In this document: one piece after another, positions 6,507 through 32,473 of the stretch | How positions within the stretch are numbered: position 1 is the first letter of the stretch | Layout: each line of letters starts with the position of its first letter | Source: Candidatus Nomurabacteria bacterium RIFCSPLOWO2_01_FULL_41_12 | Lineage (GTDB): Bacteria > Patescibacteriota > Minisyncoccia > Phycocordibacterales > UBA9973 | Direction: 5' to 3' | Assembly: GCA_001787035.1 (NCBI GenBank) | Contig: MFUY01000011.1 | Location: forward strand, 1-32,473 | DNA: 32,473 bases | Notes under the pieces: model-generated | Databases searched by the model: none | What the model saw: the letters and a program-made list of their open reading frames with translations, nothing else | Told to the model about the DNA's origin: nothing | Translations under genes and position numbers: made by a program

Positions 6507-7097
6507 ATGAACAATCCCTACCAAACAAAGCTGGAATCTTTTTACTCTCAAAATAAAAGAATGCCGACGTATTCGGAGATGACAAAACTTTTTAATTTCA
6601 AAAGCAAAAACGCAGTTTTTCGTGTTGTTGAGAAATTGATGGAGGCTGGATTGGTCGCGAAGGATCATTTAGGTAGGCTTATGCCCAGTCAAGTTTTTGG
6701 TGAAATTCCTAAATTAGGATTAGTGACGGCGGGTTTCCCGGCGACAGTAGAAGAGGAATTAGCAGATACGGTTAACTTAGATGACTTACTTGTAAAAAAT
6801 AAGGCGCTCACTTATATGCTGGAAGTAGATGGAGACTCAATGATAGACGCGCATATAGAGAAAGGGGATATGGTGTTGGTGGAGAAAACTAACGTAGCCA
6901 AAGACGGCGAGATAGTGATAGCGGAAGTGGATGGGGAGTTTACGATGAAATATTTCCGCCGTTCGACTGTGCTCACGGCAGGCAAAAAGACAGAAAAAGT
7001 CTGGCTTGAGCCGGCGAATAAAAATTACCAGCCGATATATCCGGAGACCAGCCTAAACGTGATAGCAAAATTAAAGGCGGTGATTAGGAAATACTAA
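6507..7097 (+). CDS. lexA: LexA repressor (S24 peptidase)
   Basis: N-terminal wHTH, the VTAG/FP cleavage-site region, the GDSM Ser motif and the Lys motif in EFTMKYF. Confidence 0.85.
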   Translation: MNNPYQTKLESFYSQNKRMPTYSEMTKLFNFKSKNAVFRVVEKLMEAGLVAKDHLGRLMPSQVFGEIPKLGLVTAGFPATVEEELADTVNLDDLLVKNKALTYMLEVDGDSMIDAHIEKGDMVLVEKTNVAKDGEIVIAEVDGEFTMKYFRRSTVLTAGKKTEKVWLEPANKNYQPIYPETSLNVIAKLKAVIRKY

Positions 7098-7882: not shown

Positions 7883-8072
7883 AGAAATTGAGTATATACT
7901 ATTTGATATATTTGTGTCAATACTTTTCCACGAAAAATTAAGTTTTCAAAAAGACTCTCTTCAGCCAAAGAGTTATTCACATTTTATTGACTATAAGATT
8001 TGACAACTAAATTATTTCTGCTAGACTCTACTAAATAAGGTCTATTATAAGTTTTTAATTATTTAGTAATAT

Positions 8073-9203
8073 ATGACTACAACAGGAAAAGTTATTGTGT
8101 GGGGAGTGGTCGCAGTGCTTGTGATTTGGGGGATAGTTTCCATGTCCAAAAAAGACGGCACAGAATCCGAGACTATAAAAATAGGTTTCATCGGTCCCTT
8201 GACCGGAGATACGGCTAATATTGGACAAAACGCGCAAGCAGCTGTGGCCATTGCAGTTGAAGAAGTGAACAATTCAGGAGGAGTGCTCGGCAAAAAAGTG
8301 GAAGTGGTTTATGAGGATGACGGTTGCAATGGTGCAACCGCTGCCAATGCGGTGTCTAAGTTGATAAATACGGACAAAGTTGTGGCGATTTTAGGCGGGG
8401 CATGTTCCGGGGCAACGCTCGGTTCAGCGCCGATTGCGGAAGCCGCCAAGGTTGTCCAGCTATCTTACTGCTCCACCAACCCGACTATAAGTTCTGCTGG
8501 GGACTACATCTTCCGTGATGTTCCATCCGATTTGTTCCAAGCAAACTATGCGGCTGAATATCTGGTCCGAAATGGCAAAACAAAAGTGGCTTTACTGACC
8601 GTTAAGAATGACTGGGGCGATGGTTTAAACAAAGCATTTACTGATGCTCTTGCCAAAGCCGGTGGCACAATTGTCATAGCTGACTCATTTGACCCGGACG
8701 TAAAAAATTTGAAAGCTCAATTCACGAATATAAAAGCAAAAAATCCAGATGCGGTTTATTTTGTGGCTTACACCGACGCGAGCATTGCTGGCCTCAAGCA
8801 AGCGTCTGACCTCGGCATTAAGGCTCAATTTTTCGGAGCGGACGCTTGGGATGACACGAAAATTTGGAGCGAATTAGGTTCGCTTGGCAACGGCGCGATG
8901 TTCACGGTGGTCGGAACAAATTCAACCGATGCTTTTAAAGCAAAAATGAAGGTCAAGCTTGGCAAAGATGATTTAATCTACTGTTCTAACTATGCTTATG
9001 ATGGGTTGAAAGTAATTGCCGAAGCGATAAAACTTGCCAGGAGAGCTACCGGTCCGGCCATCAAGGATGCGTTATATAAAGTAAAGTACACCGGCGGAGT
9101 TTCAGCTAAAGAGCTTATGTTTGACAAGAATGGCGACCCGACTTCCGCCGCTTATGTCATAAAAGTGGCGAAAGACGGGAAACTCTCTGAATTGGCACAA
9201 TAG
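8073..9203 (+). CDS. livK: Branched-chain amino-acid ABC transporter substrate-binding protein (LivK/Peripla_BP_6-like), anchored by an N-terminal TM helix
   Basis: 376 aa. IKIGFIGPLTGDTANIGQ and the family-typical layout are present. It is the first gene in the K-H-M-G-F order. Confidence 0.75.
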   Translation: MTTTGKVIVWGVVAVLVIWGIVSMSKKDGTESETIKIGFIGPLTGDTANIGQNAQAAVAIAVEEVNNSGGVLGKKVEVVYEDDGCNGATAANAVSKLINTDKVVAILGGACSGATLGSAPIAEAAKVVQLSYCSTNPTISSAGDYIFRDVPSDLFQANYAAEYLVRNGKTKVALLTVKNDWGDGLNKAFTDALAKAGGTIVIADSFDPDVKNLKAQFTNIKAKNPDAVYFVAYTDASIAGLKQASDLGIKAQFFGADAWDDTKIWSELGSLGNGAMFTVVGTNSTDAFKAKMKVKLGKDDLIYCSNYAYDGLKVIAEAIKLARRATGPAIKDALYKVKYTGGVSAKELMFDKNGDPTSAAYVIKVAKDGKLSELAQ

Positions 9204-9213
9204 TTATAATTAG

Positions 9214-9327
9214 AAAAATCGTCGTAATAACTTTTCGCGGGGTTTTGAGCGCGACGGCGCGAGAACTTCAGGATTTTTTAAGCTTCAAAAAATTCGTACC
9301 GAAGAAAAGTTTATTACGACAATTTTT
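9214..9327 (+). repeat. Nested palindromic intergenic element, copy A (62-nt core at 9239-9300)
   Basis: The core is GGGGTTTTGAGCGCGACGGCGCGAGAACTTCAGGATTTTTTAAGCTTCAAAAAATTCGTACC. Copy-specific arms are 9214-9236 and 9304-9327, with one bulge and one mismatch. Confidence 0.85.
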
Positions 9328-9341
9328 GTTATACTTAACGT

Positions 9342-10205
9342 ATGATATTCTGGCAACTGACTCTCTATGCAATCTCTGTTGGGATGTTTTTTTCTGTACT
9401 TGCTATGGGCTGGGGACTCATTTTACGCAGCGCAAAGTTTTTTAATTTGGCTTATGGTGGAGCATTTCTGGTGGGAGGGTATATGATGTTTTTATTTTAC
9501 CGCATGTGGAACGTGCATTTCGTCTTTTCCATCTTACTTAGTCTTTTCGGGTCAGGTTTGTATATGCTACTTTCTTATAAATTTATATTTAGCGTACTTC
9601 TCCGCCGCAAAGCGAAAAGCTTGATTCTGCTTATCGCCTCCTTCGGGCTTCTGACCGCTACATCCGCAATTCTTGGCATGATTTTCGGCAATCAATCCAC
9701 TCTTATCGCGCGTCATCTAAGCGATATTTACACAGTAAATGTATTTGGAGCGGTGCTCAATTTGGCTCAGGTCGTCGCTATTGTTTTTGTTCCTGTATTA
9801 ATATTTGTTTTTGCATATATTCGTTCTTCTACGCGTTTTGGGAGAGCGATGAGAGCAATAGAAGATGATAGTGAAGTAGCCGAGTTGGTAGGGATTCCAA
9901 AAGACAAGACTCTTTTACAAATTTTCTTTATTTCCGGGACGTTAGCGGGCTTGGGCGGAATAGCGGAAGGATTTGATCTTGGGCTTATTCCGACTTCCGG
10001 ACTTATAATTATCCTTCCGACAATTGTGGCTACTGTGGTCGGGGGGATGCAAAGTTTTTGGGGCGGAATCCTCGGCGCTTTTATTCTGGCTATAGCTCAG
10101 CAATTAACAATAGTTTTCTTTGGCGGAAGCTGGGTGCAAGCGGTGCCGTTTGTTATTCTTATCATTATGCTTCTTCTACGTCCGCAGGGAATACTTAAAA
10201 GATAA
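9342..10205 (+). CDS. livH: Branched-chain amino-acid ABC transporter permease
   Basis: 287 aa polytopic protein, LivH-like, in the canonical operon position. Confidence 0.8.
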   Translation: MIFWQLTLYAISVGMFFSVLAMGWGLILRSAKFFNLAYGGAFLVGGYMMFLFYRMWNVHFVFSILLSLFGSGLYMLLSYKFIFSVLLRRKAKSLILLIASFGLLTATSAILGMIFGNQSTLIARHLSDIYTVNVFGAVLNLAQVVAIVFVPVLIFVFAYIRSSTRFGRAMRAIEDDSEVAELVGIPKDKTLLQIFFISGTLAGLGGIAEGFDLGLIPTSGLIIILPTIVATVVGGMQSFWGGILGAFILAIAQQLTIVFFGGSWVQAVPFVILIIMLLLRPQGILKR

Positions 10206-10210
10206 CCTGT

Positions 10211-10277
10211 CCCGTACTAAATTTTTGATTACAAAAAATGACCATTATAAGTAAAAACTTAAAATTTTAGTACCGGG
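10211..10277. repeat. Long intercistronic hairpin; possible degenerate relative of the nested element
   Basis: CCCGTACTAAATTTTT (10211-10226) pairs with AAAATTTTAGTACCGGG (10261-10277). GTAC..ATTTTTGA..AAAAAAT weakly resembles the core arm. The 3' arm abuts the livM ATG. Confidence 0.35.
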
Positions 10278-11144
10278 ATGGAATATATTTTTCACATTTT
10301 AATACTTGTATCCATCTACGGCATTTTGGCTCTGGCGCAAAATTTAGTAATGGGCGGAGCGGGCTTGCTGACGATTGCCGGAGCCGCTTTTTACGGGATT
10401 GGCGCATACGCGGCGGCAATTCTGGCTACAAAATTCGGCTTTAATATTTTTACCACATTGATAATTGCGCCGCTAGTTGCGGGTCTGATTGCGCTAATGG
10501 TCGGGAGCACTTTTGCGCGCTTTCGGGACGATTATTTCATGCTGGCGACTCTCGGGTTTTTGATGATATTCAATACCGTAGTGCGGAATTGGGAGAGTTT
10601 TACTGGTGGGTCTTACGGTATAGCCGGAATTCCGAAACCGCACGTCTTTGGTTTTGTTTTTGATACGCCTCTTTCTTTTGTTTTTCTCGCAGTTGTTGTC
10701 CTTCTTATAGTTACAGCTATAACTTATTTTATTTCCCGCTCATCATTCGGCCGGGTGCTGAATGCTATTCGCGAAGACGAAGACGCACTTGCTATTTTCG
10801 GCTACAAAACGTCAACTTACAAATTAATGGCTTTTTCTATCGGAGCGGCTTTAACTGCATGGGGCGGCGTGCTTTTTGCAAGCTATCTTACTTTTATTGA
10901 CTCAAGGCTATTTACGGTAAATGAATCTATCCTTCTTTGGGCGATGATTATTTTAGGAGGAATCGCGAGAAATCGTGGAGCCTTGCTCGGAGCTTTTCTT
11001 TTAATAACAGTTCCCGAAGCATTGCGGTTTATTGGTTTTCCAGTGGACTTTGCCGCGTTGCTACGGCAATGTATATATGGGCTGCTACTTGTTTTCTTAA
11101 TGTTATATCGTCCGAAAGGAATTTTAGGGAAATATAAATTATGA
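10278..11144 (+). CDS. livM: Branched-chain amino-acid ABC transporter permease
   Basis: 288 aa polytopic protein, LivM-like, in the canonical position. Confidence 0.8.
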   Translation: MEYIFHILILVSIYGILALAQNLVMGGAGLLTIAGAAFYGIGAYAAAILATKFGFNIFTTLIIAPLVAGLIALMVGSTFARFRDDYFMLATLGFLMIFNTVVRNWESFTGGSYGIAGIPKPHVFGFVFDTPLSFVFLAVVVLLIVTAITYFISRSSFGRVLNAIREDEDALAIFGYKTSTYKLMAFSIGAALTAWGGVLFASYLTFIDSRLFTVNESILLWAMIILGGIARNRGALLGAFLLITVPEALRFIGFPVDFAALLRQCIYGLLLVFLMLYRPKGILGKYKL

Positions 11145-11150
11145 TAAATA

Positions 11151-11885
11151 ATGAAAAATATTATTAAAACAAAACAATTAGTAAAACATTTCGGCGGGGT
11201 AAGTGCCGTAGACCACCTTTCTATTACTATCCCAAAAGGGCAAATTACCGGACTAGTAGGTCCAAATGGCAGTGGCAAGACAACGCTCATTAATTTGCTA
11301 TCCGGCTTTTTTTCTCACGATAAAGGCGCGATATTATTCTCCGATACCGAGAGAAGAAAAATTCTTCCTTGGGAAAACAAAATTTATAATATTACCCGCA
11401 CTTTTCAGCAAATCAGGCTTTTTGACCAAATGACTGTGCTAGACAATATGTTGGTAGTTTTAACCGAACGCAATCCATTTTGGTCTTTATTTGAAAAGCA
11501 TAATAAGTATCACATAAAGCAGGCGGAAGATATCCTGGGGCACTTGGGTTTATATGAAAAAAGATTTCATAATGCCGGTGATTTGTCATACGGCCAGAGA
11601 AAACTTTTGGAAATTGGACGGGTACTCTCTATGGATGCGGACACAATTCTTTTTGACGAACCTTTTGCCGGGCTTTTTCCTGAAATGATTAAGCAGATTG
11701 AGGGAATTATTAAAGAATTAAAACAAAAAGGGAAGACAATAGTTCTTGTTGAGCACAACATGGCGATTATCCGGTCTTTGTGCGATTATGTCATTGTGAT
11801 GGATGCCGGCAAAATGCTTGCCGAAGGCAGTCCGGAAAAAGTATTATCAGAGAAAATTGTTTTAGAAGCGTATTTAGGAGAGTAG
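11151..11885 (+). CDS. livG: ABC transporter ATP-binding protein, LivG type
   Basis: Walker A GPNGSGKTT, signature LSYGQRKLLEIGR, Walker B ILFDEP. Confidence 0.85.
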   Translation: MKNIIKTKQLVKHFGGVSAVDHLSITIPKGQITGLVGPNGSGKTTLINLLSGFFSHDKGAILFSDTERRKILPWENKIYNITRTFQQIRLFDQMTVLDNMLVVLTERNPFWSLFEKHNKYHIKQAEDILGHLGLYEKRFHNAGDLSYGQRKLLEIGRVLSMDADTILFDEPFAGLFPEMIKQIEGIIKELKQKGKTIVLVEHNMAIIRSLCDYVIVMDAGKMLAEGSPEKVLSEKIVLEAYLGE

Positions 11886-11892
11886 AATTATG

Positions 11893-12017
11893 ATAAATTT
11901 ATGAATACAAACTTTCCTTTGGTACGGATTTTTCAATAAACGGTTAGTCTTAAAAAATTCTGAAGTTCAGAGCTCGCCAGCCTCGAAACCCCGCGGAAAG
12001 CTTTATTAAAAATTTAT
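11893..12017 (-). repeat. Nested palindromic intergenic element, copy B (diverged and inverted)
   Basis: The core at 11921-11992 retains GGTACGGATTTTT...AAAAAATTCTGAAGTT...AAACCCC with extra loop sequence. Arms are 11893-11917 and 11995-12017, with about 21 of 25 positions paired. The 3' arm covers the first two bases of the livF ATG. Confidence 0.7.
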
Positions 12018-12729
12018 GAAACCATTACTAGAATTAAAAAATATTTCAGCCGGATATGGAGAGCAGAAAATCATACACGATATTTCGCTTTTTATAAATG
12101 GGGGTGAAATCGTGGCATTAATGGGCCCGAATGGAGCAGGAAAATCCACGATTTTAAAAGCAATTTTTGGCTTAATATCCCATACTGGCGCTTTATTTTA
12201 TCAAGAAGAGAAAATTATTCCAACGCCCTCTCAAATTGTGAAAATGGGAGTGGCTTTTGTGCCTCAAGGCAGGCGAGTGTTTAATAATCTGACAGTGGAA
12301 GAAAATCTGGAAATTGGCGGGTTTTCTTTGAATGATGAAGAAGAATGCAGAAGGAGAGCCAAACATCTTATGCATCTTTTTCCTGCACTTCATGCTAAAA
12401 AAGATGCTTATGCCGGGACGCTCTCCGGTGGGCAGCAGCAGCTTCTTTCTATTGCCCGCGGACTGATGATGCAGCCGAAACTTCTCTTGCTTGATGAGCC
12501 CACGCTTGGCCTCTCGCCGAAAGTTGTGAAGGAAATTTTCCAAACCATCAAAGATATCAATAAAAATCAAAAAACAGCCATTCTCATCGTGGAGCACAAT
12601 CTTCATTCTCTTTTGCCGATTACTGATCGCGCGTATGTCCTTGCTCATGGCAAAATCGTTGTCTCCGACACCGGTCCAAATATCGCCAAGAGTGATATCC
12701 TTGAGCGGGTTTTTATGGGGAAGATATAA
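12016..12729 (+). CDS. livF: ABC transporter ATP-binding protein, LivF type
   Basis: Walker A GPNGAGKST, signature LSGGQQQLLSIAR, Walker B LLLDEP. Confidence 0.85.
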   Translation: MKPLLELKNISAGYGEQKIIHDISLFINGGEIVALMGPNGAGKSTILKAIFGLISHTGALFYQEEKIIPTPSQIVKMGVAFVPQGRRVFNNLTVEENLEIGGFSLNDEEECRRRAKHLMHLFPALHAKKDAYAGTLSGGQQQLLSIARGLMMQPKLLLLDEPTLGLSPKVVKEIFQTIKDINKNQKTAILIVEHNLHSLLPITDRAYVLAHGKIVVSDTGPNIAKSDILERVFMGKI

Positions 12730-12736
12730 AAATTAA

Positions 12737-12849
12737 AAAAATAATAAATATAAATTTTTTTAGGTACGGATTTTTTGAAGCTTAAAAAATCCTGAAGTTT
12801 TCACGCCGTCGCGTTCAAAACCCCTAAAAAACTTATATTTATTATTTTT
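12737..12849 (-). repeat. Nested palindromic intergenic element, copy C (inverted)
   Basis: The core at 12763-12824 matches the reverse complement of copy D at 58 of 62 positions. The A/T-only arms are 12737-12762 and 12825-12849. Confidence 0.85.
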
Positions 12850-12850
12850 C

Positions 12851-12890
12851 AGGAAAACAAAAATCCCCATAAAGGGATTTTTGTTTTCCT
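12851..12890. terminator. Bidirectional hairpin between the convergent livF and hup genes
   Basis: AGGAAAACAAAAATCCC and GGGATTTTTGTTTTCCT form a 17-bp perfect stem with a 6-nt loop. The arms are U-rich. Confidence 0.55.
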
Positions 12891-12931
12891 ACATTTCTCT
12901 CGAGAGAACCCGCCAAAGGACGGGCAGGAAT

Positions 12932-13204
12932 TTACGCAACTGTGTCTTTCAAACCTTTTGCCGGTCGGAATTTCGGAACTCTCTTTGCAGCCACTTTGAC
13001 TTGCGCTCCAGTCTTTGGATTGCGGGCCATTCTGGCAGCTCTTTGCTTTACGGAAAAGATTCCGAAGCCAGCGATTGATACTTCGCCGCCCTTTTTCAAG
13101 GTCTGGACGATAGCATCAAACAATCCGTCTACGACTTCTTCAGCCTGCACTTTGGTACCACCGAGTTTTCCGTGTACCCAGTCAGCCAATGCTTGTTTGT
13201 TCAT
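12932..13204 (-). CDS. hup: HU-family DNA-binding protein
   Basis: 90 aa. MNKQALADWV..., GFGIFSVKQRAARMARNPKTG and PKFRPAKGLKD are present. Confidence 0.9.
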   Translation of the reverse strand: MNKQALADWVHGKLGGTKVQAEEVVDGLFDAIVQTLKKGGEVSIAGFGIFSVKQRAARMARNPKTGAQVKVAAKRVPKFRPAKGLKDTVA

Positions 13205-13250
13205 ATTTTTAAAAGTTATTTTTATAATTCTTTCGACCTTGCCCGCCTGC

Positions 13251-13271
13251 TTACCCGCCCTAGGCGGGTAA
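13251..13271 (-). other. GC hairpin upstream of hup
   Basis: TTACCCGCC-CTA-GGCGGGTAA forms a 9-bp stem. There is no U-tract in the direction of transcription. Confidence 0.3.
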
Positions 13272-13336: not shown

Positions 13337-13473
13337 GCCCCCACACTTATCTTTGGTATTATCCTGCTTTTTCAATAAAATTATTACTTTTACCTATATT
13401 TCCTGTAAAAAACCAGTTTATTAAAAGATTTATTTAGCAGAATAAAAAGCTATACCAAAATAAGTGTGGGGGC
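13337..13473 (-). other. Long-range ~23-bp inverted repeat just downstream of the membrane-protein gene
   Basis: GCCCCCACACTTATCTTTGGTAT (13337-13359) pairs with ATACCAAAATAAGTGTGGGGGC (13452-13473) with one bulge. It encloses 92 AT-rich nt. Confidence 0.4.
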
Positions 13474-23295: not shown

Positions 23296-24510
23296 TTACT
23301 CTTCTTTTTTTTCAATCACTTCTTCAGTTTCCGTAGAGACCACTTCTTTGCCGTCGCCCTTGATGTCTATCCTCCACCCAGTCAGCTTGGCCGCTAGGCG
23401 CACGTTTTGTCCACCCTTGCCGATAGCCAGCGATAATTGATCATTGGCTACTTCTACCGTGGCTTTGTGGTCCTTTTCATCCACTTCAATTGCAACGACT
23501 TTTGCCGGAGAAATGGCATTGGCAACAAAGATTTTCGGATCCGAAGACCAGGGAATAATATCGATTTTCTCGCCACCTAGCTCTCCGGTCACGGTGTTTA
23601 CCCGCGTGCCTTTCTGCCCGACGCATGAGCCGACTGGGTCTATGTGCTCGTCGTTTGAAAATACCGCTATCTTGGAACGGGCGCCGGCTTCCCGGGCTAC
23701 AGATTTTATCTCAACGATTCCATTTTGAATTTCCGGCGCTTCCACAGCAAAAAGCTTTTCTATGAATTTCGGATGCGTGCGGGAAAGGCGTAAATTAATG
23801 CCCCTTGGCGTGTCTTCCACGGAATAGAGATATGCTCGCACGCGAGCCCCTCTCTGGAAAGATTCCCCGGGAATTTGCTCTTCGGCGGACAGGATGCCTG
23901 TGGCGCGATTGAAATCAACATAGACATTTCCTCTTTCAACTTTCTGCACTATTCCCCCGATGATTTCTCCTTCTTTTGTCCCATATTCATCAATGATAGA
24001 CGTGCGTTCAGCCTCGCGGATTTTCTGTATTATGACCTGCTTGGCGGTCTGGGCGGCGATGCGTCCGTAATCTTCTTTTGCCTCTAATGGGAAAATAACT
24101 TCATCATTTAATTCCACCCCTTTTTTTATTTTCTTTGCATCTTCCAGCATCAGGTGATGTTCCGGATTGAAGTGCACTCGTTCGTCTTCTATATCTTTTA
24201 CAGAATATTCCCCGCCTGCATCAGCTATGCCGAAAGCATTGCGGGCAGGTTGCTCATTTTCCTTACCTTTATTTTTATCCCCATCTAAGATTGCGATAGT
24301 TTCATCAACCACGATTTTTACTTGGAAAAATTCCGTTTTGCCGGTCTCCAGGTCGAATTTAGCCCGGATAATTTGCCCTTTTTTGCCGTAATCCTTTTTA
24401 TAAGCGGCCGCCATTGCTTGCTCTATAGCGTCTAATATTTTTTCTTTTGGAATTTTCCTTTCTTCTTCGAGCTGTTCCAGGGCTGACTTGAACGTCTTTA
24501 GGTCTAACAT
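23296..24510 (-). CDS. nusA: Transcription termination/antitermination factor NusA
   Basis: NTD, an S1-like GGIVQKVERGNVYVDF, and KH motifs VGQKGTRV and AIGKGGQNVRLA. It carries the 44-bp shared insert, encoding PARNAFGIADAGGE. Confidence 0.9.
   Translation of the reverse strand: MLDLKTFKSALEQLEEERKIPKEKILDAIEQAMAAAYKKDYGKKGQIIRAKFDLETGKTEFFQVKIVVDETIAILDGDKNKGKENEQPARNAFGIADAGGEYSVKDIEDERVHFNPEHHLMLEDAKKIKKGVELNDEVIFPLEAKEDYGRIAAQTAKQVIIQKIREAERTSIIDEYGTKEGEIIGGIVQKVERGNVYVDFNRATGILSAEEQIPGESFQRGARVRAYLYSVEDTPRGINLRLSRTHPKFIEKLFAVEAPEIQNGIVEIKSVAREAGARSKIAVFSNDEHIDPVGSCVGQKGTRVNTVTGELGGEKIDIIPWSSDPKIFVANAISPAKVVAIEVDEKDHKATVEVANDQLSLAIGKGGQNVRLAAKLTGWRIDIKGDGKEVVSTETEEVIEKKEE
24208..24251 (-). 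repeat. 44-bp in-frame coding repeat, copy 2 (in nusA)
   Basis: TTCCCCGCCTGCATCAGCTATGCCGAAAGCATTGCGGGCAGGTT matches 751-794 at 41 of 44 positions. Confidence 0.85.
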
Positions 24511-24591
24511 AATATATTTTCTTTAATTTTATAAACAAAAAGAGCCCCGCTAGCACAGGACTCATACGTAGTGTATAGTATCACAAGGTTT

Positions 24592-26001
24592 ATGGAAACG
24601 CAATACTTGCGAAAAATTTGGGAAACAAATACCCATTCATTCTTAGTTCTGCTCGTTGTGTCGGGGTGTATTTTTTATTATGGCTATTTTACAAATCCTA
24701 TGGTTAAAAATGGAATGATCACAGTTATTATAAATGACAAAGGATTTTCTCCAGAAAAAATTATTGTTCCTCAAGGTACAACAGTGAAGTGGGTTAATCA
24801 AGATGAGCGTCCACATTGGCCGGCTTCCAATTTCCATCCGACTCATAGTCTCTACCCGGAGCAGGGCGGCTGTATTGGAAGTCTGTTTGATGCTTGCCGG
24901 AGTCTTAAAGAGGGAGAATATTACTCTTTCAAATTTGACATTGCCGGTATTTGGCCAGTGCATGATCACCTTTCTCCGGGGATGATTATGGTGATAGAGG
25001 TTGTTGACCCCGTTAAAAGTGCTCGCGACGGAGTCGCGAGTTTAAAAGACCGCAGCGCGGCTACTTCTAACGGGGTAACTGCTGCTGAATTCCGCCAGCT
25101 TGATTATGGCAAACAAATGGAAATCATTAAATCCATGGCAACTAGTAATCCGAATAAAGCATGGGGTTATCTCAAGAATAGCTACATAGTTGACGGCCAG
25201 GTAGTCGGCAATGCCCATGAGTTTGCCCACATTGTCGGTAATCTTGCATTTGAAAAATTCAGCTTGGATGGGATAAAAGTTTGCGACGCAACATTTGCTT
25301 TTGGCTGTTTTCATGGAGTTACGGAAAAGATGCTTTTAAGTGAAGGCCTGGGGGTTATTAAGTCTATAGAAAATGGATGTTTAGAAATTTTCCCGCCGGA
25401 TAAATCGCAGGATTATACCAGCTGTATTCACGGGACGGGCCATGGGGTGTATAGTTTTGAAGGAGGGGACATGAAGGAGGCTCTTATTGATTGTGATATT
25501 ATCAGCGAACCCTACAGGCAGTATTGCTATGACGGGGTATTTATGGAACGTTCTTCCCAGCCGGATGCTAAAATATTTGACAATAAAAATCCATGGAAAT
25601 TTTGTACCGATCTTCCCGAGCGTTATCATCGCAATTGCGCCAGATATCAGAGCCAGATTTTCTTAGGCGCATTTGGCTCGCTGGGTTCCGTCAAAGCAGT
25701 CGGCAAAAATTGCGCTCTCGGATCGTCAGTATTGCTGCGAGAAACATGCTATGAAAGTCTTGGTTATTATATAGCTCAGCAATCTCTTGGAAAAATGTCA
25801 GAAATTTTAGAAAGTTGTAAACAAATGCCCAATACCGACGGACAGTCAGAGGGGGGAGAGATATGCATGATGGGTGGAGCAATTGAAAGTGTTTTTCAGA
25901 AATATCTTGATTTTCGGGACACTTCCTATAGGCTATGTAATAGCTTAACCGAGCTAAGGCGAGTATTATGTTTTAACAATATAGAAAGGATGCTTAAATG
26001 A
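24592..26001 (+). CDS. Membrane-anchored protein with a cupredoxin-like domain and one Cys/His-rich module (paralogue P1)
   Basis: TM helix, then a beta-rich segment ITVIINDKGFSPEKIIVPQGTTVKWVNQDERPHW...WPVHDHLSPGMIMVIEV. The module has HEFAH, CFHG, CIHGTGHG and CYDGVFME. The start is either ATG 24592 or GTG 24571. Confidence 0.65.
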   Translation: METQYLRKIWETNTHSFLVLLVVSGCIFYYGYFTNPMVKNGMITVIINDKGFSPEKIIVPQGTTVKWVNQDERPHWPASNFHPTHSLYPEQGGCIGSLFDACRSLKEGEYYSFKFDIAGIWPVHDHLSPGMIMVIEVVDPVKSARDGVASLKDRSAATSNGVTAAEFRQLDYGKQMEIIKSMATSNPNKAWGYLKNSYIVDGQVVGNAHEFAHIVGNLAFEKFSLDGIKVCDATFAFGCFHGVTEKMLLSEGLGVIKSIENGCLEIFPPDKSQDYTSCIHGTGHGVYSFEGGDMKEALIDCDIISEPYRQYCYDGVFMERSSQPDAKIFDNKNPWKFCTDLPERYHRNCARYQSQIFLGAFGSLGSVKAVGKNCALGSSVLLRETCYESLGYYIAQQSLGKMSEILESCKQMPNTDGQSEGGEICMMGGAIESVFQKYLDFRDTSYRLCNSLTELRRVLCFNNIERMLK

Positions 26002-28259
26002 AAAATAAAATTTTACAACTGATCAAGATTTTTGCCATTGTGTTTTTGATATTTTTATTTTCAAATCTAAATTTTTTCTTTGGTTCGCGCCCGGCGTGGA
26101 AAGATAATCCAGGATTGATTATGGCCAGAAATATTCATGATTACTGCCTAAAGAACGCAAGTCTTTCTAAAGGCAAAGACAATTGTTATGCGGAGGAATT
26201 TAAAAAGCTCGGTGAGCAAAATGGGGACGTTTTTAGTTTTAAAGTTTTAGATAGTCTGCAGAGAATTGACCCAGATGCTATTGGTTGCCATTTGATTGCC
26301 CATGGTATTGGCACAGGTTCATATAAAAGAGAACCGGAAAATTGGCGCATCTTGGTACAGAACATAAACAGCAGCTGCAGTTATGGAGCTCCTCATGGAG
26401 TTTTGGAAAGTTATGTTCTTACTTTACCAGAGAAAAGCCTGAGCAAAGATGTAATTCCTACTATCTGCGGCGAGGCTCCACGGGCTGACTGCAACCATAT
26501 CATCGGACATTTGCTTTTAGTCCAAACTGACGCTGACGTAAGTAAAGCCTTAAATTTATGCGAGGTATTTACCGACCCACGGCAGAATAATTTTTGCATA
26601 TCAGGAGTATTTATGGAGTATCAAACTGCGCTTAATTTAGTCGCGCATGATTTGGTTCCAAAGTCTTGGCTCAATTGGCCACCCAGACTAGGAGAATTAG
26701 AAAAATTATGCCGTTCTTATAGCGGCAAGTATGCCGAAGGATGCTGGGAGGAGATAGTTCATGTAGCGTTGGTAAAGTTTAACAACGATGCAAAGACGAT
26801 TTTTGATTTTTGTAGTACAGCCCAAGTTCCCAACGGAGCGAAAAGATGTAAAAGGCATTCAATCGGGATTATCGGCGCGTCGCGGAATTTTAATCTTGCC
26901 AGCTTGAAATCAATCTGCAGTCTTCCACAAAAGAATGACCCTAGTTTTGAAGAAGAGTGTTATACAGCGCTGGTTTCAAGCGCGCTTTCTACCATACCTT
27001 CCATTGTTCCCGAAGCAACTTCATTTTGCCAGAGTTTAGAAAAACAATTTCAGTCTTCTTGTCTTTCCATGGTTGACGCTATATCAGGTAAGGTTTATGT
27101 TAAAGGTTCCGGTAAAATTATAGCTCTTCAGGCTACGCAAGATAAGGATAAAATAGTGAAATTTTCTCCCGATGAATTTAAAATTTTATGGCCGAAAGCC
27201 TTATTTAAAATAGGCTCACAGAAAGACAATACTTTAAATAGCGAAATTGTGAGTATTAAAACTGTGCGAAACATAGATGAACAAGTTAAATTATATACAA
27301 AATTGATTGAAAGAGTGGGGCCAGAGCAGGCCCAAGAAGACCTTTTGCGTTCCGGATTACCTTTTGACGGGCAAACGCATCTTCTCAACCATACAGTGGG
27401 AGATTATTTATATTTAAAATACGGCGTAGCTGGGCTCTCACAATGTAAAGACTACTTTCTGTCTTCCTGTTACCATGGTTTTATCTTGCACGCGATAGCG
27501 GACGGTGGCATGAATAAAGTAGCTGAAGTTTTCGCTTCTTGTTATAAAGAAGGCTCGACCGTTTATATCCAATGCACTCACGCCATCGGCCACGGCTTTT
27601 TAGCGAATGCGGGTTATAAAAATTTAACGCAAGCCTTAAAAATTTGTGATGAAGCAATCAGTACCATACCGAACTTCCCGGCTTTTAATTGTTATGACGG
27701 AGTATTTATGGAAAATATTTGGGCAGTGCACGATGGCAAGCCTTCCCCAGACCGATGGATCAAGGAAGATGACATGGAGTACCCTTGTAATGACAAGCGG
27801 ATAGATGCTAAATATCTATTTGGCTGTTGGTCTAACCAGCCTTCTTTGGTCTTTCAGCTCTCCGGAGGTGATATCAAAAAAGTAGCAGATGTTTGTAGTA
27901 AAATAAAAAATTCTGGCTATCAAGAAACATGTTTCAATGGTCTTGCCAGACAAATCCATCCATTGACCAGCGGGGAAGTTGGAAAAACATTTGAACTGTG
28001 TGGCTTGATGCCTAGTTTGAAGTGGAATAATTATTGTGTATTTGTTAATGCCACCTCCAGTTATTCAGTGGGGGACAGAACTACCCCATTTGCAATGTGT
28101 GCCAACATCAATGGAAATGAGAAACAGGATTGTTATAATCAACTGTTTTCCATTATGCGGAGTTATGCCAAGCCCGGGGAAGACATAAAAAAATTATGCT
28201 CAAAAGTTTTCGAAATAGAGTGGCGTAAAAAATGCGAGTTGAGCCAGATATCCGGCTAA
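25998..28259 (+). CDS. Membrane-anchored protein with two Cys/His-rich modules (paralogue P2)
   Basis: 753 aa; its ATG overlaps the P1 stop (ATGA). Module 1 has HLIAHGIG, CNHIIGH and CISGVFME. Module 2 has HLLNHTVG, CYHG, CTHAIGHG and CYDGVFME. Confidence 0.7.
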   Translation: MKNKILQLIKIFAIVFLIFLFSNLNFFFGSRPAWKDNPGLIMARNIHDYCLKNASLSKGKDNCYAEEFKKLGEQNGDVFSFKVLDSLQRIDPDAIGCHLIAHGIGTGSYKREPENWRILVQNINSSCSYGAPHGVLESYVLTLPEKSLSKDVIPTICGEAPRADCNHIIGHLLLVQTDADVSKALNLCEVFTDPRQNNFCISGVFMEYQTALNLVAHDLVPKSWLNWPPRLGELEKLCRSYSGKYAEGCWEEIVHVALVKFNNDAKTIFDFCSTAQVPNGAKRCKRHSIGIIGASRNFNLASLKSICSLPQKNDPSFEEECYTALVSSALSTIPSIVPEATSFCQSLEKQFQSSCLSMVDAISGKVYVKGSGKIIALQATQDKDKIVKFSPDEFKILWPKALFKIGSQKDNTLNSEIVSIKTVRNIDEQVKLYTKLIERVGPEQAQEDLLRSGLPFDGQTHLLNHTVGDYLYLKYGVAGLSQCKDYFLSSCYHGFILHAIADGGMNKVAEVFASCYKEGSTVYIQCTHAIGHGFLANAGYKNLTQALKICDEAISTIPNFPAFNCYDGVFMENIWAVHDGKPSPDRWIKEDDMEYPCNDKRIDAKYLFGCWSNQPSLVFQLSGGDIKKVADVCSKIKNSGYQETCFNGLARQIHPLTSGEVGKTFELCGLMPSLKWNNYCVFVNATSSYSVGDRTTPFAMCANINGNEKQDCYNQLFSIMRSYAKPGEDIKKLCSKVFEIEWRKKCELSQISG

Positions 28260-28343: not shown

Positions 28344-28459
28344 AAAATTCTTGAAACATAATTTTTCGCAGGGTTTTGAGCGCGACGGCGCGAGAACTTC
28401 AGGATTTTTTAAGCTTCAAAAAATCCGTACCAAAGAGAAATTGATGTTTTTAGAATTTT
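28344..28459 (+). repeat. Nested palindromic intergenic element, copy D
   Basis: The core at 28370-28431 matches copy A at 60 of 62 positions. Copy-specific imperfect arms are 28344-28367 and 28435-28459. It lies between convergent genes. Confidence 0.85.
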
Positions 28460-28460
28460 G

Positions 28461-28961
28461 TTATTCCTCGGCTACTGGCACGATCTGCCACTTACCTCCA
28501 CCCAAGCCGTTGCCATTTACGTCGCCGGGAATTTTGTCTCCTATGTAATAATACACCGGCTGTATGCCATAAGCATATTGGCGCGTTCCATCGCTCCTTT
28601 TAGCGGCGTTTAACTTTTTATCCAGAGGATTGGTCATAGTTGCAAAGTTTTGCGTAGTGTCCCACATAAATGGAGGCCAATTTTTTACACAATCCCCGGC
28701 ACAAGTACTCTTGAGCCTTTCATCATCTTTAAATGCATAGAGTGTCATCCCTTCTGAGTCTGTCAGATATACTCCAAGTTTTTCACTTTTTACATAACCG
28801 ACAACCTTACCAGCCACTAAATTAAGACCAGGCACCTCATCTTCGTCTATGGTCGCACTACCCCCATTTTGTACTCTCGGTGTTTTGTTTAAGAAAAATA
28901 TTAATCCCCCAATTAACACTAAAACTATTACAAACGCACTAATTATATTTTTATTTTCCAT
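28461..28961 (-). CDS. Secreted or membrane-anchored COG4315 / Lipoprotein_15-repeat protein
   Basis: TM helix, then LTDSEGMTLYAFKDD...CAGDCVKNWPPF and GIQPVYYYIGDKIPGDVNGNG..GKW. The ATG at 28961 is preferred over 29030, which would overlap the divergent promoter. Confidence 0.65.
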   Translation of the reverse strand: MENKNIISAFVIVLVLIGGLIFFLNKTPRVQNGGSATIDEDEVPGLNLVAGKVVGYVKSEKLGVYLTDSEGMTLYAFKDDERLKSTCAGDCVKNWPPFMWDTTQNFATMTNPLDKKLNAAKRSDGTRQYAYGIQPVYYYIGDKIPGDVNGNGLGGGKWQIVPVAEE

Positions 28962-29023
28962 ACCTATATAATAACGCTTTTTTGATTTTTTGCAGACATA
29001 ACACTGTGGATAACTCCCCTTGA

Positions 29024-29052
29024 TTGACAAATAGGTTTTTTAAGAGTATAAT
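29024..29052 (+). promoter_or_regulatory. Perfect consensus sigma-70 promoter
   Basis: TTGACA (29024-29029), a 17-nt spacer, then TATAAT (29047-29052). GGAGG at 29104-29108 lies 6 nt before the ATG at 29115. Confidence 0.55.
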
Positions 29053-29114
29053 GGCGATTGAGAAGGGGCGTTCTGTCCCTCGCTCATCGTCAATAGAAGA
29101 ATTGGAGGTGACCC

Positions 29115-30329
29115 ATGGGTCGCTACAGCTGGCTTTTCGTCGTCGTGCTGGCGACCGTGTTGGTCGCCGCTTGCAGTGAGCCTTACAAGCCCACTGCGCC
29201 GTCGTCGCCCTCTTCGTCTCTCACGTCAGGCGTTTGGTTTGCGCCTGGTACGTCGGAAATGGCGTCGGTGCACGATGTGGAACCGGAACCGGCACCCTTG
29301 CCGACCCCGGAACCGGAACCGGCACCCTTGCCGGCACCGGAGCCGACCGTCGTGCATCCTGGCACCGTCACGGACGTCGCTGGCAAGCCCATCGGGGGTG
29401 TCAAGGTGATGTTCCTTGACGGACTCAACGTTGGCAAGTTCACGTTTACGAATGCCGACGGTGACTATGTTGGCGCGTATGCGTTTACCGATGCGTTGGT
29501 CGGAAACGCGAACCTATCAGCCACGAAGGTTGGGTACGCAGAGCAGATCCTTGGCATCTACGTTGACGGCATCAACACGCTTGATTTCGTGCTGAGCGCT
29601 ATGTCGACACAGTCCCCGAGGGCTGTGGACGACAACTACACCGTCCAGCTCGGCACGGTTCTGAATGTTCCGGCCCCTGGAGTCCTGGCGAACGACTCTA
29701 TTCCGGCGGGAATGACGGTTACGGCATCATTCCCGCCACCGAGGCCACCAGGGACCTTGACCAACACTGGGGGTGGGGGGTTTACGTATAACCCCATCGT
29801 TGACCCTCAGAACCCGCCTGTCGTGCGGTTTCAATACCTGATCCAAACAGCGGCTGGAGCAATCAATGGAGCAACCGTGACGGTTAACTTCGTTGTTGAT
29901 CCTACAAAGCCAACCATCAGCATCAGGGAGGTGCTGCCGGCGAGCCCTGCGGGGCCGCTGCCACGTGGGAACTTGAGCACGGTTCGAGTTCTTCTGCATT
30001 TCGAGCAAAACAACTGGGCCGGGACGGACAGGATGACCGCTTGGCTCTGCGGGGCTGATGATCGTCCGAGTATGATCATCCGGACCAGTTGTCAGGCGAA
30101 CAGCGTGAGCAGGCAGTCGCCGGACTTGTACCTCAACCCCACGCTGGGGCTCCGGGGCCCGTCTGACTGCGGAATCGTCAAGGTCACGCGGCTCGTGGCG
30201 TTCCTCACGCCGACGAACGAGACGCCACATGTGCCCTCGCCTACGGATCCTTACAAGTCTGAGGTGGGGATCACTATGTGGGCTCGCGCTGAGCGAGCCG
30301 TCGACTGGACCTATCAGCCGTGCAATTAG
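29115..30329 (+). CDS. High-GC lipoprotein with PEPEPAPLP repeats, a CarboxypepD_reg-like segment and an adhesin-type Ig/cadherin-like motif
   Basis: Lipobox LVAAC. GTVTDVAGKPIGGVKVMF...NADGDY and VDDNYTVQLGTVLNVPAPGVLANDS are present. Third codon positions are GC-rich, unlike every neighbouring gene. Confidence 0.75.
   Translation: MGRYSWLFVVVLATVLVAACSEPYKPTAPSSPSSSLTSGVWFAPGTSEMASVHDVEPEPAPLPTPEPEPAPLPAPEPTVVHPGTVTDVAGKPIGGVKVMFLDGLNVGKFTFTNADGDYVGAYAFTDALVGNANLSATKVGYAEQILGIYVDGINTLDFVLSAMSTQSPRAVDDNYTVQLGTVLNVPAPGVLANDSIPAGMTVTASFPPPRPPGTLTNTGGGGFTYNPIVDPQNPPVVRFQYLIQTAAGAINGATVTVNFVVDPTKPTISIREVLPASPAGPLPRGNLSTVRVLLHFEQNNWAGTDRMTAWLCGADDRPSMIIRTSCQANSVSRQSPDLYLNPTLGLRGPSDCGIVKVTRLVAFLTPTNETPHVPSPTDPYKSEVGITMWARAERAVDWTYQPCN
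29280..29339 (+). repeat. 30-bp tandem duplication inside the high-GC gene
   Basis: GAACCGGAACCGGCACCCTTGCCGACCCCG and GAACCGGAACCGGCACCCTTGCCGGCACCG match at 28 of 30 positions. They encode EPEPAPLPTP and EPEPAPLPAP. Confidence 0.85.
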
Positions 30330-30359
30330 GCTGACAGGTAGTTAGACGGGAGAAAACAA

Positions 30360-30385
30360 GGGCCGGGGCGCGAGCGCCCCGGCCC
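30360..30385 (+). terminator. GC-only hairpin after the high-GC gene, with no U-tract
   Basis: GGGCCGGGGCG-CGAG-CGCCCCGGCCC forms an 11-bp stem with a tetraloop. It is followed by GAGGAGG rather than a T run. Confidence 0.4.
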
Positions 30386-30488
30386 GAGGAGGCAATGTGA
30401 ATATCAAAGATAATATCAAAACGTCGTTAAGACCCTTAGGGAGCACTGGCGGCTTTTTAATTTCAATAAAGTATTGTACTATCAATTT

Positions 30489-32473
30489 GTGAGTAATAAA
30501 CTTAAAAATATCGTTTCTAATCAAAAGGACTTATTTTTGTTTTTCGGGATAATCCTAATTTTGGGCATTTTTTTGTTTCAAGATAGTCCAAAAAATAAAT
30601 TTACTGTGCGTAACAGTTATCCTGAACTTTCATTTTTACAAGGCAAGAATTTTAATTTTGCCGAAAACTCAAAGTTTTTTGCGAAGTTGGCTCAAGACCA
30701 AGGCGGAGAGTATGCTTATAAGGCATTAGCATATGCGACAACGCGTTCCATTTTCCCTGCAAATATTGACACTCATTTATTAGGCCATGTGGTTGGGGAT
30801 GAATTATTTAAACAAAAAGGTCTTTTCGGTATGCAATTTTGCACTGATGACCTGCGCAATGCCTGCTCTCATTCTATTGTGGTTGGCGGGCTTCTGGCTG
30901 AAGGGATAGACGCGATAAATAAAATGGTGGGAGTTTGTAAGGGAGCACCCGGTGGTAAAGGAGCGTATCGTATGTGTGTGCATGGCTTGGGCCATGGTGT
31001 TTTGGCTTTTACCGACTACGATATGCGTAAAGCCGTTGATCTTTGCAAGCCTATCGCTACCACTTCGGAATATTCTAATATGGAGTTCGTGGAGTGCATC
31101 GGTGGTATTACTATGGAGATGATGGCTGGGGTGAATGATAAGCAGGCTTGGGAAAAACAAAAAGTTAACTATTTCAAATCTAATGACCCATTAGCCCCCT
31201 GCAATTTAGGTTTTATCCCGGAAAAAGCGGTCCATATCTGTTACACTTTTTTAACACCCCATTTATTTGAAAGCGCCGGGATAAATCCAGGAGCGCCCCC
31301 CCTTCCTATGCATCTTAAAAAAGCTTTTACTTTTTGTGAAAAAATTCCTGAAAATGAAGGTCGCAATCGGGAATCCTGCTTTGGTGGTTTTGGCAAGGAA
31401 TTCGTGGTGCTGGCAAATGAACGCAATGTGCAGAGCGTGGAGAATATGGATAGTGGAAAATTGGCTAAAATTGACGAGTGGTGTAATCTGGCTATAGATG
31501 AGGGTATAAAGCCGTGCCTTTATTCAGCGCTCCAGTCTTTATTTTGGGGCGGGGAAAATAAAAGGGATGTGGCTATTAGATTTTGCTCTATTATGGAGGA
31601 TAAACAAAAACAAACTTTCTGTTTTGAGAATTTAATTGGGGCAGTGTCTTATTATATTGTTGATGCTAAATATCGCGCGGAATTTTGTTCAGAAATCCCG
31701 GAAGGCTATCGCACAGAATGTAAATCAAAACTGGAGTTGAAAGAGCCGGCAAGATTAATTTCAAATAAAGTGTTTTTTGACTTTAATAAAATTAGAGTGA
31801 CTGAAAATGAGAAATATCAAAGATACGCCGATCAGATTTTAAAATTGTGTGGTGATAAAAATTACCGACCCGCTTGTTATGATGAAGAAATCCCTAAATT
31901 GATGGATTCTATCTCAATGGAAGATGCGTTTAAAGTTACCAAATTGGTGCAAAAGCAGGATTCGGAATATCTTTATTGCCATGTTTTAGCCCATAACTTA
32001 AGTGCCCAGGAAGTGGCTAAAAATCCCGATAATTGGAAAGATGTGGTGATTAGGTGTCCTTCAGGCACGTGTTCAAACGGCTGTATTCACGGTGGATTCC
32101 AAGAACGTTTTCGGGCTGAATCATTTTCAGCAGAGCAGATTGAGGTCCTAGTTCCAGATTTAAAAATATTATGCGAACCAAGAGGCTTATGGAAGCCGAC
32201 AGGGCTTGAACAAGGGTCTTGCTATCACGCTTTAGGGCATTTGACTATGTATTTAACCGCGGCCGATATTGATACATCGCTCAAGCTTTGTGATAGAGTG
32301 GCTCTACCGTTTTTACAGCTTTGTTATGATGGGGCTTTTATGCAGATTTCCCAGCCACTAGAACCTGAGGATTTTGCTTTGATTGCCGGAAAAGAAGTGA
32401 AAAAAGAAAAATTGAAAGATTTTTGTTCAAATTTCAAAGGGAAACAGAAAAGTTCCTGCTGGAGCGAGGGCTG
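30489..32473 (+). CDS. Membrane-anchored protein with two Cys/His-rich modules (paralogue P3); the 3' end lies outside the window
   Basis: It is absent from the ORF track because it has no stop in the window. The frame is open from 30414. A GTG at 30489 gives VSNKLKNIVSNQKDLFLFFGIILILGIFLF, a TM helix. Motifs are HLLGHVVG, CSHS, CVHGLGHG, ECIGGITME, then HVLAH, CIHGG, CYHALGH and CYDGAFMQ. Confidence 0.65.
   Translation, partial: MSNKLKNIVSNQKDLFLFFGIILILGIFLFQDSPKNKFTVRNSYPELSFLQGKNFNFAENSKFFAKLAQDQGGEYAYKALAYATTRSIFPANIDTHLLGHVVGDELFKQKGLFGMQFCTDDLRNACSHSIVVGGLLAEGIDAINKMVGVCKGAPGGKGAYRMCVHGLGHGVLAFTDYDMRKAVDLCKPIATTSEYSNMEFVECIGGITMEMMAGVNDKQAWEKQKVNYFKSNDPLAPCNLGFIPEKAVHICYTFLTPHLFESAGINPGAPPLPMHLKKAFTFCEKIPENEGRNRESCFGGFGKEFVVLANERNVQSVENMDSGKLAKIDEWCNLAIDEGIKPCLYSALQSLFWGGENKRDVAIRFCSIMEDKQKQTFCFENLIGAVSYYIVDAKYRAEFCSEIPEGYRTECKSKLELKEPARLISNKVFFDFNKIRVTENEKYQRYADQILKLCGDKNYRPACYDEEIPKLMDSISMEDAFKVTKLVQKQDSEYLYCHVLAHNLSAQEVAKNPDNWKDVVIRCPSGTCSNGCIHGGFQERFRAESFSAEQIEVLVPDLKILCEPRGLWKPTGLEQGSCYHALGHLTMYLTAADIDTSLKLCDRVALPFLQLCYDGAFMQISQPLEPEDFALIAGKEVKKEKLKDFCSNFKGKQKSSCWSEG

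Follow-up and report, generated by a model that had tools for sequence, protein, structure and literature searches.

How does a GC-rich gene come to lie among low-GC genes in a genome of the candidate phyla radiation (CPR), and did it arrive there once or repeatedly? The question is raised by a 32,473-nucleotide stretch of contig MFUY01000011.1 from Candidatus Nomurabacteria bacterium RIFCSPLOWO2_01_FULL_41_12 (hereafter the window), in which an abrupt GC island at 29053–30392 holds a single gene for a putative surface protein. An earlier note on this DNA had proposed recent horizontal acquisition of that gene from a high-GC donor, with a chimeric assembly as the alternative. The explanation we favour, and consider fairly probable, is that this is a genuine horizontally acquired gene in a conserved, reusable expression slot, which was refilled from sympatric high-GC bacteria after two Nomurabacteria species had split.

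The island, its gene and its frame

We examined 38.8 kb of host DNA. The sharp jump in composition described earlier was confirmed: G+C content (GC) is 0.607 at 29053–30392 (814 of 1,340 nucleotides), whereas the DNA on its left has 0.410 and that on its right 0.396. Cumulative GC turns at 29052 and 30393, and in 200-nucleotide windows GC climbs from 0.34 to 0.52–0.675 before dropping to 0.28. The hand counts behind the earlier description were exact throughout (39 of 60 at 29161–29220, 13 of 60 at 28921–28980 and 16 of 60 at 30541–30600). The sole open reading frame (ORF) in the island, at 29115–30329 on the + strand, begins with MGRYSWLFVVVLATVLVAAC and encodes 404 amino acids; its GC is 0.606 overall, 0.52 at second codon positions (GC2), 0.709 at third positions (GC3) and 0.67 at fourfold-degenerate sites (GC4). 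GC3 in the 26 other window genes is 0.398 ± 0.055 (z = 5.7), in line with the claim that GC-rich third positions are foreign to this genome, and the tetranucleotide comparison that the note had proposed separated the island from the rest of the window by an L1 distance of 0.74, exceeding the background maximum of 0.36. When a GC-island filter was applied to 539 kb of related CPR loci, comparable islands were confined to this slot. One other segment, L027 14130–14730, passed the filter marginally, at 0.546 against a locus mean of 0.395.

The island begins where a promoter ends. A perfect sigma-70 consensus (TTGACA-17-TATAAT, 12/12 matches) at 29024–29052 on the + strand is the only site with at most one mismatch in the 32-kb window, and GC-rich DNA starts one base past it, so that the layout described earlier, in which a host-type promoter would drive the foreign gene, is present. 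The 5′ untranslated region (UTR; 29053–29114) contains a Shine–Dalgarno sequence, GGAGG, at 29104–29108, and its final ~25 nucleotides are AT-rich. At the other end, an all-GC hairpin with an 11–12-bp stem (30360–30385, + strand; −28 to −32 kcal/mol, z = −3.3 to −5.8) forms the predicted 3′ end of the island mRNA. It has the GC-rich stem-loop of a Rho-independent terminator; a U-tract 3′ of the stem is absent on the + strand, where the stem continues into GAGGAGGCAAUG, and a T-tract occurs on the − strand only, which agrees with the U-tract-less 11-bp hairpin of the earlier note. A Logan contig, L010 (SRR3989342), ends at 30386, within one base of the last hairpin pair (30385), suggesting that the hairpin produces a coverage or assembly break in some datasets.

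The hairpin is followed by a leader (30394–30545) that holds a 31-codon GTG-initiated ORF (30397–30492) with GGAGG upstream; its TGA stop overlaps the GTG start of p802, the next gene. RNA folding in the leader (30386–30500) was not significant (z = +0.75 and +1.5), an Rfam scan of the window at gathering thresholds gave no match, and no further + strand promoter was predicted between the hairpin and p802. The junction zones of the island share no 8-mer or longer in a search for flanking direct repeats, no tRNA was found in the window, and no integrase, transposase or other mobility gene was matched by Pfam in any window ORF or called L001 gene, so that the absence of such features noted earlier stands.

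The encoded protein is exported, by its sequence features, and modular. Its signal peptide (29115–29174) ends in a V-A-A-C lipobox with the cysteine at residue 20, the pattern [LVI][ASTVI][GAS]C following an n-region and an h-region in MGRYSWLFVVVLATVLVAAC. In a regular-expression scan of the host DNA the island gene was the only lipobox ORF, which fits the single-gene island with a VAAC lipobox reported earlier. The 30-bp tandem repeat was also recovered (29279–29345, 2.2 copies, 91% match) and encodes the proline-rich linker EPEPAPLP(T/A)P. Pfam profile searches placed a CarboxypepD_reg-like beta-sandwich segment at residues 83–160 (29361–29594); for this segment, described earlier as carboxypeptidase-regulatory-like, the match to PF13620 (E = 8.4e-7, 29.7 bits, profile positions 4–81 of 82) spans almost the whole profile and falls below the curated cut-off of 32.3 bits. 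An immunoglobulin (Ig)-like domain at residues 166–258 (29610–29888) matches Big_9 (PF17963; 29.5 bits, gathering cut-off 23.6) and Cadherin_4 (PF17803; 25.9 bits, cut-off 25.1), in keeping with the adhesin-type character proposed for the protein. Residues ~260–404 (29892–30326) form a rare all-beta C-terminal domain with a conserved terminal WxYxPCN motif, which only 3 further proteins carry among 1.84 billion representatives.

An AlphaFold2 model built from a six-sequence alignment had an overall predicted local distance difference test score (pLDDT) of 51.5; the C-terminal domain reached 65–79 and was all-beta. Foldseek searches with this low-confidence model returned only generic Ig/cadherin arrays (intimin, SraP and protocadherin; template modelling scores 0.14–0.19), a sequence search of solved structures with the island protein found no relevant match, and NCBIfam gave sub-threshold partial matches only. 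The product is probably exported and either lipid-anchored at Cys20 or held via its N-terminal helix, and its domains point to a surface adhesin. A literature search on lipoprotein processing in the CPR turned up no relevant paper.

The same slot in a sibling species and its relatives in high-GC bacteria

The earlier note had treated the acquisition as private to this genome, a view contradicted by the locus of the sole true p802 orthologue. This protein, P0062 (54% identical overall, 80% over the N-terminal 436 amino acids), comes from Candidatus Nomurabacteria RIFCSPHIGHO2_01_FULL_40_x (GCA_001785295.1; hereafter the sibling). The sibling locus (L091–L094) carries, in order, p756, a Lipoprotein_15 gene (− strand), a 319-amino-acid Big_9 gene (+ strand), p720 and genes for 159, 324 and 713 amino acids. 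The 319-amino-acid gene is also a GC island (0.57–0.655 in 200-nucleotide windows), with a GC3 of 0.725 compared with 0.34–0.43 in its neighbours. The flanks of the two loci align at ~80% nucleotide identity up to host position 29060 and again from 30355; between these points only a 178-nucleotide Big_9 core can be aligned, at 71%. A metagenome DNA scan with the conserved right-flank pattern recovered the sibling species only.

What the two species have in common is a framework: promoter, AT-rich ribosome-binding region, signal peptide with lipobox, hairpin and leader. The consensus promoter is conserved in the sibling (L091), the 5′ UTRs are weakly homologous with the AT-rich final ~25 nucleotides kept, and the signal peptides resemble each other. 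The leader is 93–98% identical against a background of ~80%; its small ORF differs at five nucleotides between the species, three of which alter an amino acid. The structure of the hairpin is kept, with a 14-bp stem in the sibling compared with 11 bp in the host, and the inner pairs differ through compensatory changes. Two G·U pairs in the sibling stem make it perfect solely as + strand RNA (−30.0 versus −20.9 kcal/mol), which argues that the hairpin acts as + strand RNA. The content of the slot is arranged differently: the host protein runs from signal peptide through proline-rich linker, CarboxypepD_reg, and Big_9 to the rare C-terminal domain, and the sibling protein from signal peptide through a Big_2-like module and Big_9 (28.4 bits) to a CarboxypepD_reg-like module. 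The earlier note had held that an equally GC-rich orthologue in a related low-GC genome would indicate an ancient compositional quirk. A GC-rich gene does lie at the locus, but it is not a simple orthologue, and because domain order differs, the sibling gene is nearer to a gene from high-GC DNA and no amelioration is seen, we do not regard the island as such a quirk.

The close relatives for which DNA is available (on L102, L096 and L099) all lie in uniformly high-GC DNA. The nearest to the sibling cassette is P0084, which has the same architecture, 68% protein identity and 71.7% nucleotide identity over 869 nucleotides; its contig, L102 (ERZ27254861 k141_2529816), has a uniform GC of 0.59–0.745, carries a DUF433/PIN toxin–antitoxin pair and was assembled from the sample that also gave host contig L001. 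Big_9 is the sole module that can be aligned at the DNA level among host, sibling and L102 (~71% nucleotide identity). At L102 584–780 the P0084 lipobox signal peptide (MTTVRKLIVALALVAGAC) is out of frame with the mature part, the shift falling in a GGGGGCGGGGG run. A comparison with the sibling protein suggests a frameshift at the C-terminus too; the gene may be a pseudogene, or the sequence may contain an error of sequencing or assembly. P0080 is 72% identical to the host C-terminal domain and is encoded on a 7-kb contig (ERZ1305449) rich in toxin–antitoxin genes, with PhdYeFM, PemK, DUF433 and FG-GAP genes, a gene content that seems not to be CPR-like. P0081, which combines Big_2 with the rare C-terminal domain, and P0082, for which the sample series is that of the host contigs, both lie in DNA of 0.60–0.68 GC. 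The P0081 gene itself (L096 975–1676; GC 0.54, GC3 0.57) adjoins addiction-module-like genes and is less GC-rich than its own flanks (GC 0.63–0.68, neighbouring gene GC3 0.81), so that the island family may be mobile among high-GC bacteria too. Wider Big_9 matches were 31–51% identical, and those with names belonged to Anaerolineae, Acidobacteria, Acidimicrobiales, Thermoanaerobaculia and Microbacteriaceae.

Together with the GC3 of the gene itself, these relatives sustain the foreign, high-GC origin proposed earlier: the natural range of the island gene family lies among high-GC bacteria that share the habitat of the CPR organisms, and from composition we infer transfer from the high-GC bacteria to the CPR. 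The search for a donor lineage that the note had called for thus found relatives in high-GC bacteria but no near-identical donor. Among 5.8 billion clustered and 1.84 billion representative proteins, the best match was 72% identical, over the C-terminal domain, and Big_9 matches did not exceed the range given above. The acquisition can therefore no longer be called recent. A phage or plasmid origin was rejected, as tblastn searches of 50,697 phage and 72,556 plasmid records found no match and an IMG/VR scan revealed no relative.

One arrival or several

In a Big_9 tree, the host, sibling and P0084 domains form a clade of their own, to which the next nearest matches are 40–45% identical. Within it, sibling and P0084 pair to the exclusion of the host cassette (bootstrap 1.0), in keeping with core identities of 72% for sibling–P0084, 56% for host–sibling and 55% for host–P0084. 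The fourfold or synonymous distance (Jukes–Cantor) between the two CPR cassettes is 1.1–1.4, and that of six flanking orthologue pairs is 0.37–0.76. We also asked how long GC-rich DNA would keep its composition in these genomes. The amelioration test used 743 flanking fourfold sites and assumes neutrality, stationarity and a donor GC4 like that of the sampled relatives; it gave an equilibrium GC4 of 0.452 and a per-lineage decay factor between GC classes of 0.53 (confidence interval 0.46–0.59). Residence since the species split would need an initial GC4 of 0.87 in the host or 0.94 in the sibling, and a P0084-like donor would imply residence times of ~0.55 (host) and ~0.29 (sibling), as fractions of the age of the split. 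The family members sampled from high-GC genomes show GC4 values of 0.54–0.76, and the GC3 of the sibling cassette equals that of P0084, with no visible decay. The homologous framework, the tree and the amelioration results together argue for an old slot that received a new ORF body once the species had separated. A remnant of the first arrival may survive in the GC hairpin.

Under this explanation, the genes would be drawn from a pool carried by high-GC bacteria of the same aquifer. The slot would be older than the split of the two Nomurabacteria species and its present contents younger, each species holding a different family member with shuffled modules that is closer to a high-GC gene than to the other CPR cassette. 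Its left part would consist of the consensus sigma-70 promoter and a host-type ribosome-binding region, and its right part of the GC hairpin and the highly conserved leader into an operon of lineage-specific Cys/His-rich paralogues; the cassette may sit between the promoter of that operon and its original first gene. The simplest route of replacement would be recombination, after the split, between the resident cassette and incoming homologous DNA. Transcription would start ~7 nucleotides past the −10 box, almost exactly where GC-rich DNA begins, translation would use the Shine–Dalgarno sequence at 29104–29108, and the proline-rich linker would project three beta-sandwich modules off the cell surface. 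The U-tract-less hairpin may stabilize the 3′ end or terminate in part, and the same promoter may also feed p802. We propose this read-through because a U-tract is lacking, GGAGG, the 31-codon ORF and the p802 start follow the hairpin, and no other promoter lies between.

Several points weigh against this explanation. The slot is known in two CPR species only, so that the replacement dynamic rests on n = 2. The closest donor-type match is only ~70% identical, L102 has neither the hairpin nor the UTR, leaving the 3′ joining of incoming DNA unexplained, and the contig of P0080 is known from its protein content and not from DNA composition. A donor with a GC4 of at least 0.9 would permit residence since the split. 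On the side of the protein, confidence in the structure model is low (pLDDT 51.5), and the native exported proteins of the host are transmembrane-anchored and lack a lipobox, which casts doubt on lipid modification here; the native substrate-binding protein and the Lipoprotein_15 homologue both have transmembrane anchors in its place.

The strongest rival, which we consider unlikely without thinking it far-fetched, supposes that one transfer, from a donor very rich in GC, preceded the species split and that hidden paralogy followed, with different copies or modules kept in each species. One large gene or two tandem paralogues would have arrived, and GC would have been preserved through the extremity of the donor, selection or biased repair. 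Such a history would account for the shared site, the homologous promoter, UTR and ribosome-binding region, signal peptide with lipobox, Big_9 core and hairpin, and for the single clade formed by the host, sibling and P0084 domains, and the initial GC4 of 0.87–0.94 that it needs is attainable in some Actinobacteria-like genomes. However, the family members found in high-GC DNA fall well short of that value, the sibling cassette shows no decay relative to P0084, neither slot retains a second gene or a pseudogene trace, and differential loss has to be invoked on top of the transfer. A recent one-off insertion into this genome only, landing by chance behind a host promoter, would be compatible with the unameliorated foreign composition and with the lack of a homologue in relatives anchored at NusA, but we regard it as very unlikely given the GC-rich homologue at the identical site of the sibling, set in a conserved framework, and the failure to find any donor above 72% identity in the protein collections searched.

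Hardly more can be said for a site-specific cassette system, integron-like or based on another recombinase, with the hairpin as recombination site. Promoter, single ORF and imperfect palindrome recall the Pc–cassette–attC layout, and the ends are conserved while the content differs between species; yet the 38.8 kb contain no integrase or other recombinase, neither strand of either species shows the RYYYAAC...GTTRRRY architecture of attC, direct repeats are missing, and the G·U pairs show a hairpin working as + strand RNA. That the gene is native, its GC richness stemming from a Pro/Ala/Gly-rich product or from selection on its mRNA, is scarcely credible: P, V, T, A and G are indeed abundant in the protein and GC2 is 0.52, but GC3 (0.71) and GC4 (0.67) are independent of amino-acid content, the nearest relatives belong to high-GC genomes, and no other CPR gene in the 539 kb of related loci shows the pattern.

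The assembly itself could be checked against public data. At least 12 public contigs encode an identical island protein, and 10 of them were retrieved; all 10 cross both junctions at 99.8–100% identity with the same neighbours. They derive from different samples and assemblers (MEGAHIT k141, an ANAN16 scaffold, JGI 3300025317, Logan and NCBI GCA_001785285.1), in a look-up limited to exact-protein matches, to which variant alleles are invisible. The sibling locus was recovered on at least 7 contigs. The chimera allowed for in the earlier note, a fragment of a high-GC organism joined into a CPR contig, was thus rejected and is practically negligible, since, for all the abruptness of the boundaries and the one Logan contig that stops exactly at the hairpin, an insertion-type chimera would require two identical false joins each time and the sibling shows the same architecture independently. 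Contamination during binning or assembly is thus not the only possible source of a sharp GC island in a CPR genome assembled from metagenomes.

A further and rather improbable reading of the refilled slot is that it serves as a determinant of host range or attachment, through which an episymbiont repeatedly copies surface Ig-like lipoprotein genes from its high-GC host. If so, expression from a promoter that is both fixed and strong could permit attachment by homophilic contact or by mimicry. The host of this CPR lineage would then be revealed by the organisms behind L102, P0080 and L099, which come from the same samples, and changes of host would be mirrored in the turnover of the cassette. 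Hosts and attachment mechanisms are known for a minority of CPR/Patescibacteria. The island protein is a concrete candidate for cell–cell interaction in Nomurabacteria, and the family of P0084, P0080, P0082 and P0081 offers a sequence handle on the partner or donor organism in Rifle-type aquifers. The slot may also serve as a small natural case of how a streamlined genome can exchange a gene behind a resident promoter without an integrase.

Surrounding genes and known systems

The window was assigned to Patescibacteria through NusA, H+-PPase, trigger factor, ClpP and RNase Y; its nearest species representatives bear Candidatus Nomurabacteria or Paceibacterota labels, with NusA identities of 75–86%. 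Relatives anchored at NusA (L011–L024) keep the trigger factor–PPase–NusA block but have no genes from p476 to p712 and no island beyond NusA, and thus provide no presence/absence test of the cassette. Synteny with related Nomurabacteria/Paceibacteria halts exactly at NusA (23296–24571), at least 14 kb to the right having no counterpart, so that the right-hand block is specific to a narrow lineage.

In that block, the low-GC paralogues p476 and p753 (24571–28259, + strand) lie upstream of the island, followed by a divergent Lipoprotein_15 gene (PF03640; 28461–28961, − strand), which adjoins the slot on its left in the host and in the sibling alike. Downstream, p802 (30489–32473, + strand) runs off the window and heads a p802–p158–p325–p712 block. 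The proteins p476, p753, p802 and p712 are genuine paralogues (23–27% identity, internally duplicated), so that the island is indeed internal to a paralogue cluster, as had been proposed. The products of 24571–28259, 30489–32473 and L001 11423–17351 are Cys/His-rich with N-terminal transmembrane anchors and had no Pfam or NCBIfam match above threshold; p476 matches Cupredoxin_1 weakly, and cupredoxin-like members also occur in a distant cluster, L103. As judged from sequence, the family could be an extracellular metal or redox system. Homologues of p802 number 19 among the 5.8 billion clustered proteins, and the more distant of the loci with such homologues (L095 and L103–L106) are paralogue clusters without a Lipoprotein_15 gene, a Big_9 cassette or an empty slot.

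Dispersed repeats were also seen between genes. An intergenic element of ~75–83 bp (GGGGTTTTGAGCGCGACGGCGCGAGAACTTCAGGATTTTTTAAGCTTCAAAAAATCCGTACC...) occurs twice in the window at ~94% identity, at 9227–9308 after a LivK-like gene and at 28358–28440 between the convergent p753 and Lipoprotein_15 genes; it had no match in Rfam. L008 carries it at 581–664, with sequence to the left that is wholly unlike the window, which may reflect a third copy, a rearrangement or a join made in assembly. Another dispersed repeat, of ~135 nucleotides, lies inverted in the sibling between Lipoprotein_15 and the cassette (L091 3011–3144) and is 76% identical to window 13338–13472. Farther left, 4562–13271 encodes a ComM-like Mg-chelatase ATPase, a LexA-like S24 peptidase, a TrmB regulator and a complete LivKHMGF-type branched-chain amino-acid ABC transporter, the binding protein of which is transmembrane-anchored and has no lipobox.

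Compared with a classical integrative genomic island, the locus has the deviant base composition and none of the mobility genes, tRNA/tmRNA site or direct repeats. It resembles integron cassettes in combining a promoterless foreign ORF with a resident upstream promoter and a palindromic 3′ element, but there is no IntI, attC core site or cassette array and the hairpin behaves as an RNA element; with neither IntI nor an attC pattern at the locus, the analogy was rejected. A survey of horizontal gene transfer into groundwater Patescibacteria describes mostly intra-phylum exchange with occasional donors from other phyla, metabolic and regulatory genes, and divergences of 4–35% within transferred gene pairs, in the sections drawn on here (PMC12455944). 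Our case shares with those cases a streamlined aquifer CPR recipient and an inferred sympatric non-CPR donor, at ~28–32% divergence; unlike them, it involves a single site with its own promoter that would have been filled more than once with genes for surface Ig-like proteins, which those sections do not describe.

The protein has the (V/L)DDxY...PAPG(V/L)LANDxD-type motif and tandem beta-sandwich modules of Big_9, Cadherin_4 and 'VCBS repeat-containing' adhesins. It departs from typical Big_9 proteins, which have 400–700 amino acids and many repeats, in its single Big_9 copy, lipobox anchor and very rare C-terminal domain. U-tract-less ('I-shaped') GC hairpin terminators have been described in high-GC Actinobacteria, and the hairpin here is like them in that a strong stem of G·C pairs only comes right after the stop codon and no U-tract follows on the 3′ side. 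In contrast to those, it is conserved within a CPR framework and is followed at once by a Shine–Dalgarno sequence and a conserved leader, suggesting read-through or 3′-end stabilization rather than full termination.

Loci at which related strains carry non-orthologous surface-structure genes between conserved flanks form an established class, the replacement-type flexible islands or islets, with O-antigen, capsule and surface-protein loci as examples. The slot belongs with them in that its flanks are conserved in relatives (~80% nucleotide identity), its content is variable, compositionally deviant, non-orthologous at the same site in the two genomes compared and predicted to encode an exposed surface protein, and there is no integrase, tRNA or direct repeat, homologous recombination being the presumed route. 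It differs in being a single-gene cassette, drawn from another phylum-level gene pool across a 20-point GC difference and set between a consensus promoter and a hairpin and leader in a CPR genome, with two genomes known. We file it as a replaceable surface-protein islet derived by horizontal gene transfer, a recognized class; it stands out by its recipient lineage, by a GC contrast of 20 points, by how exactly the foreign DNA fits between promoter and hairpin, and by having candidate donors among the sequences from its own samples.

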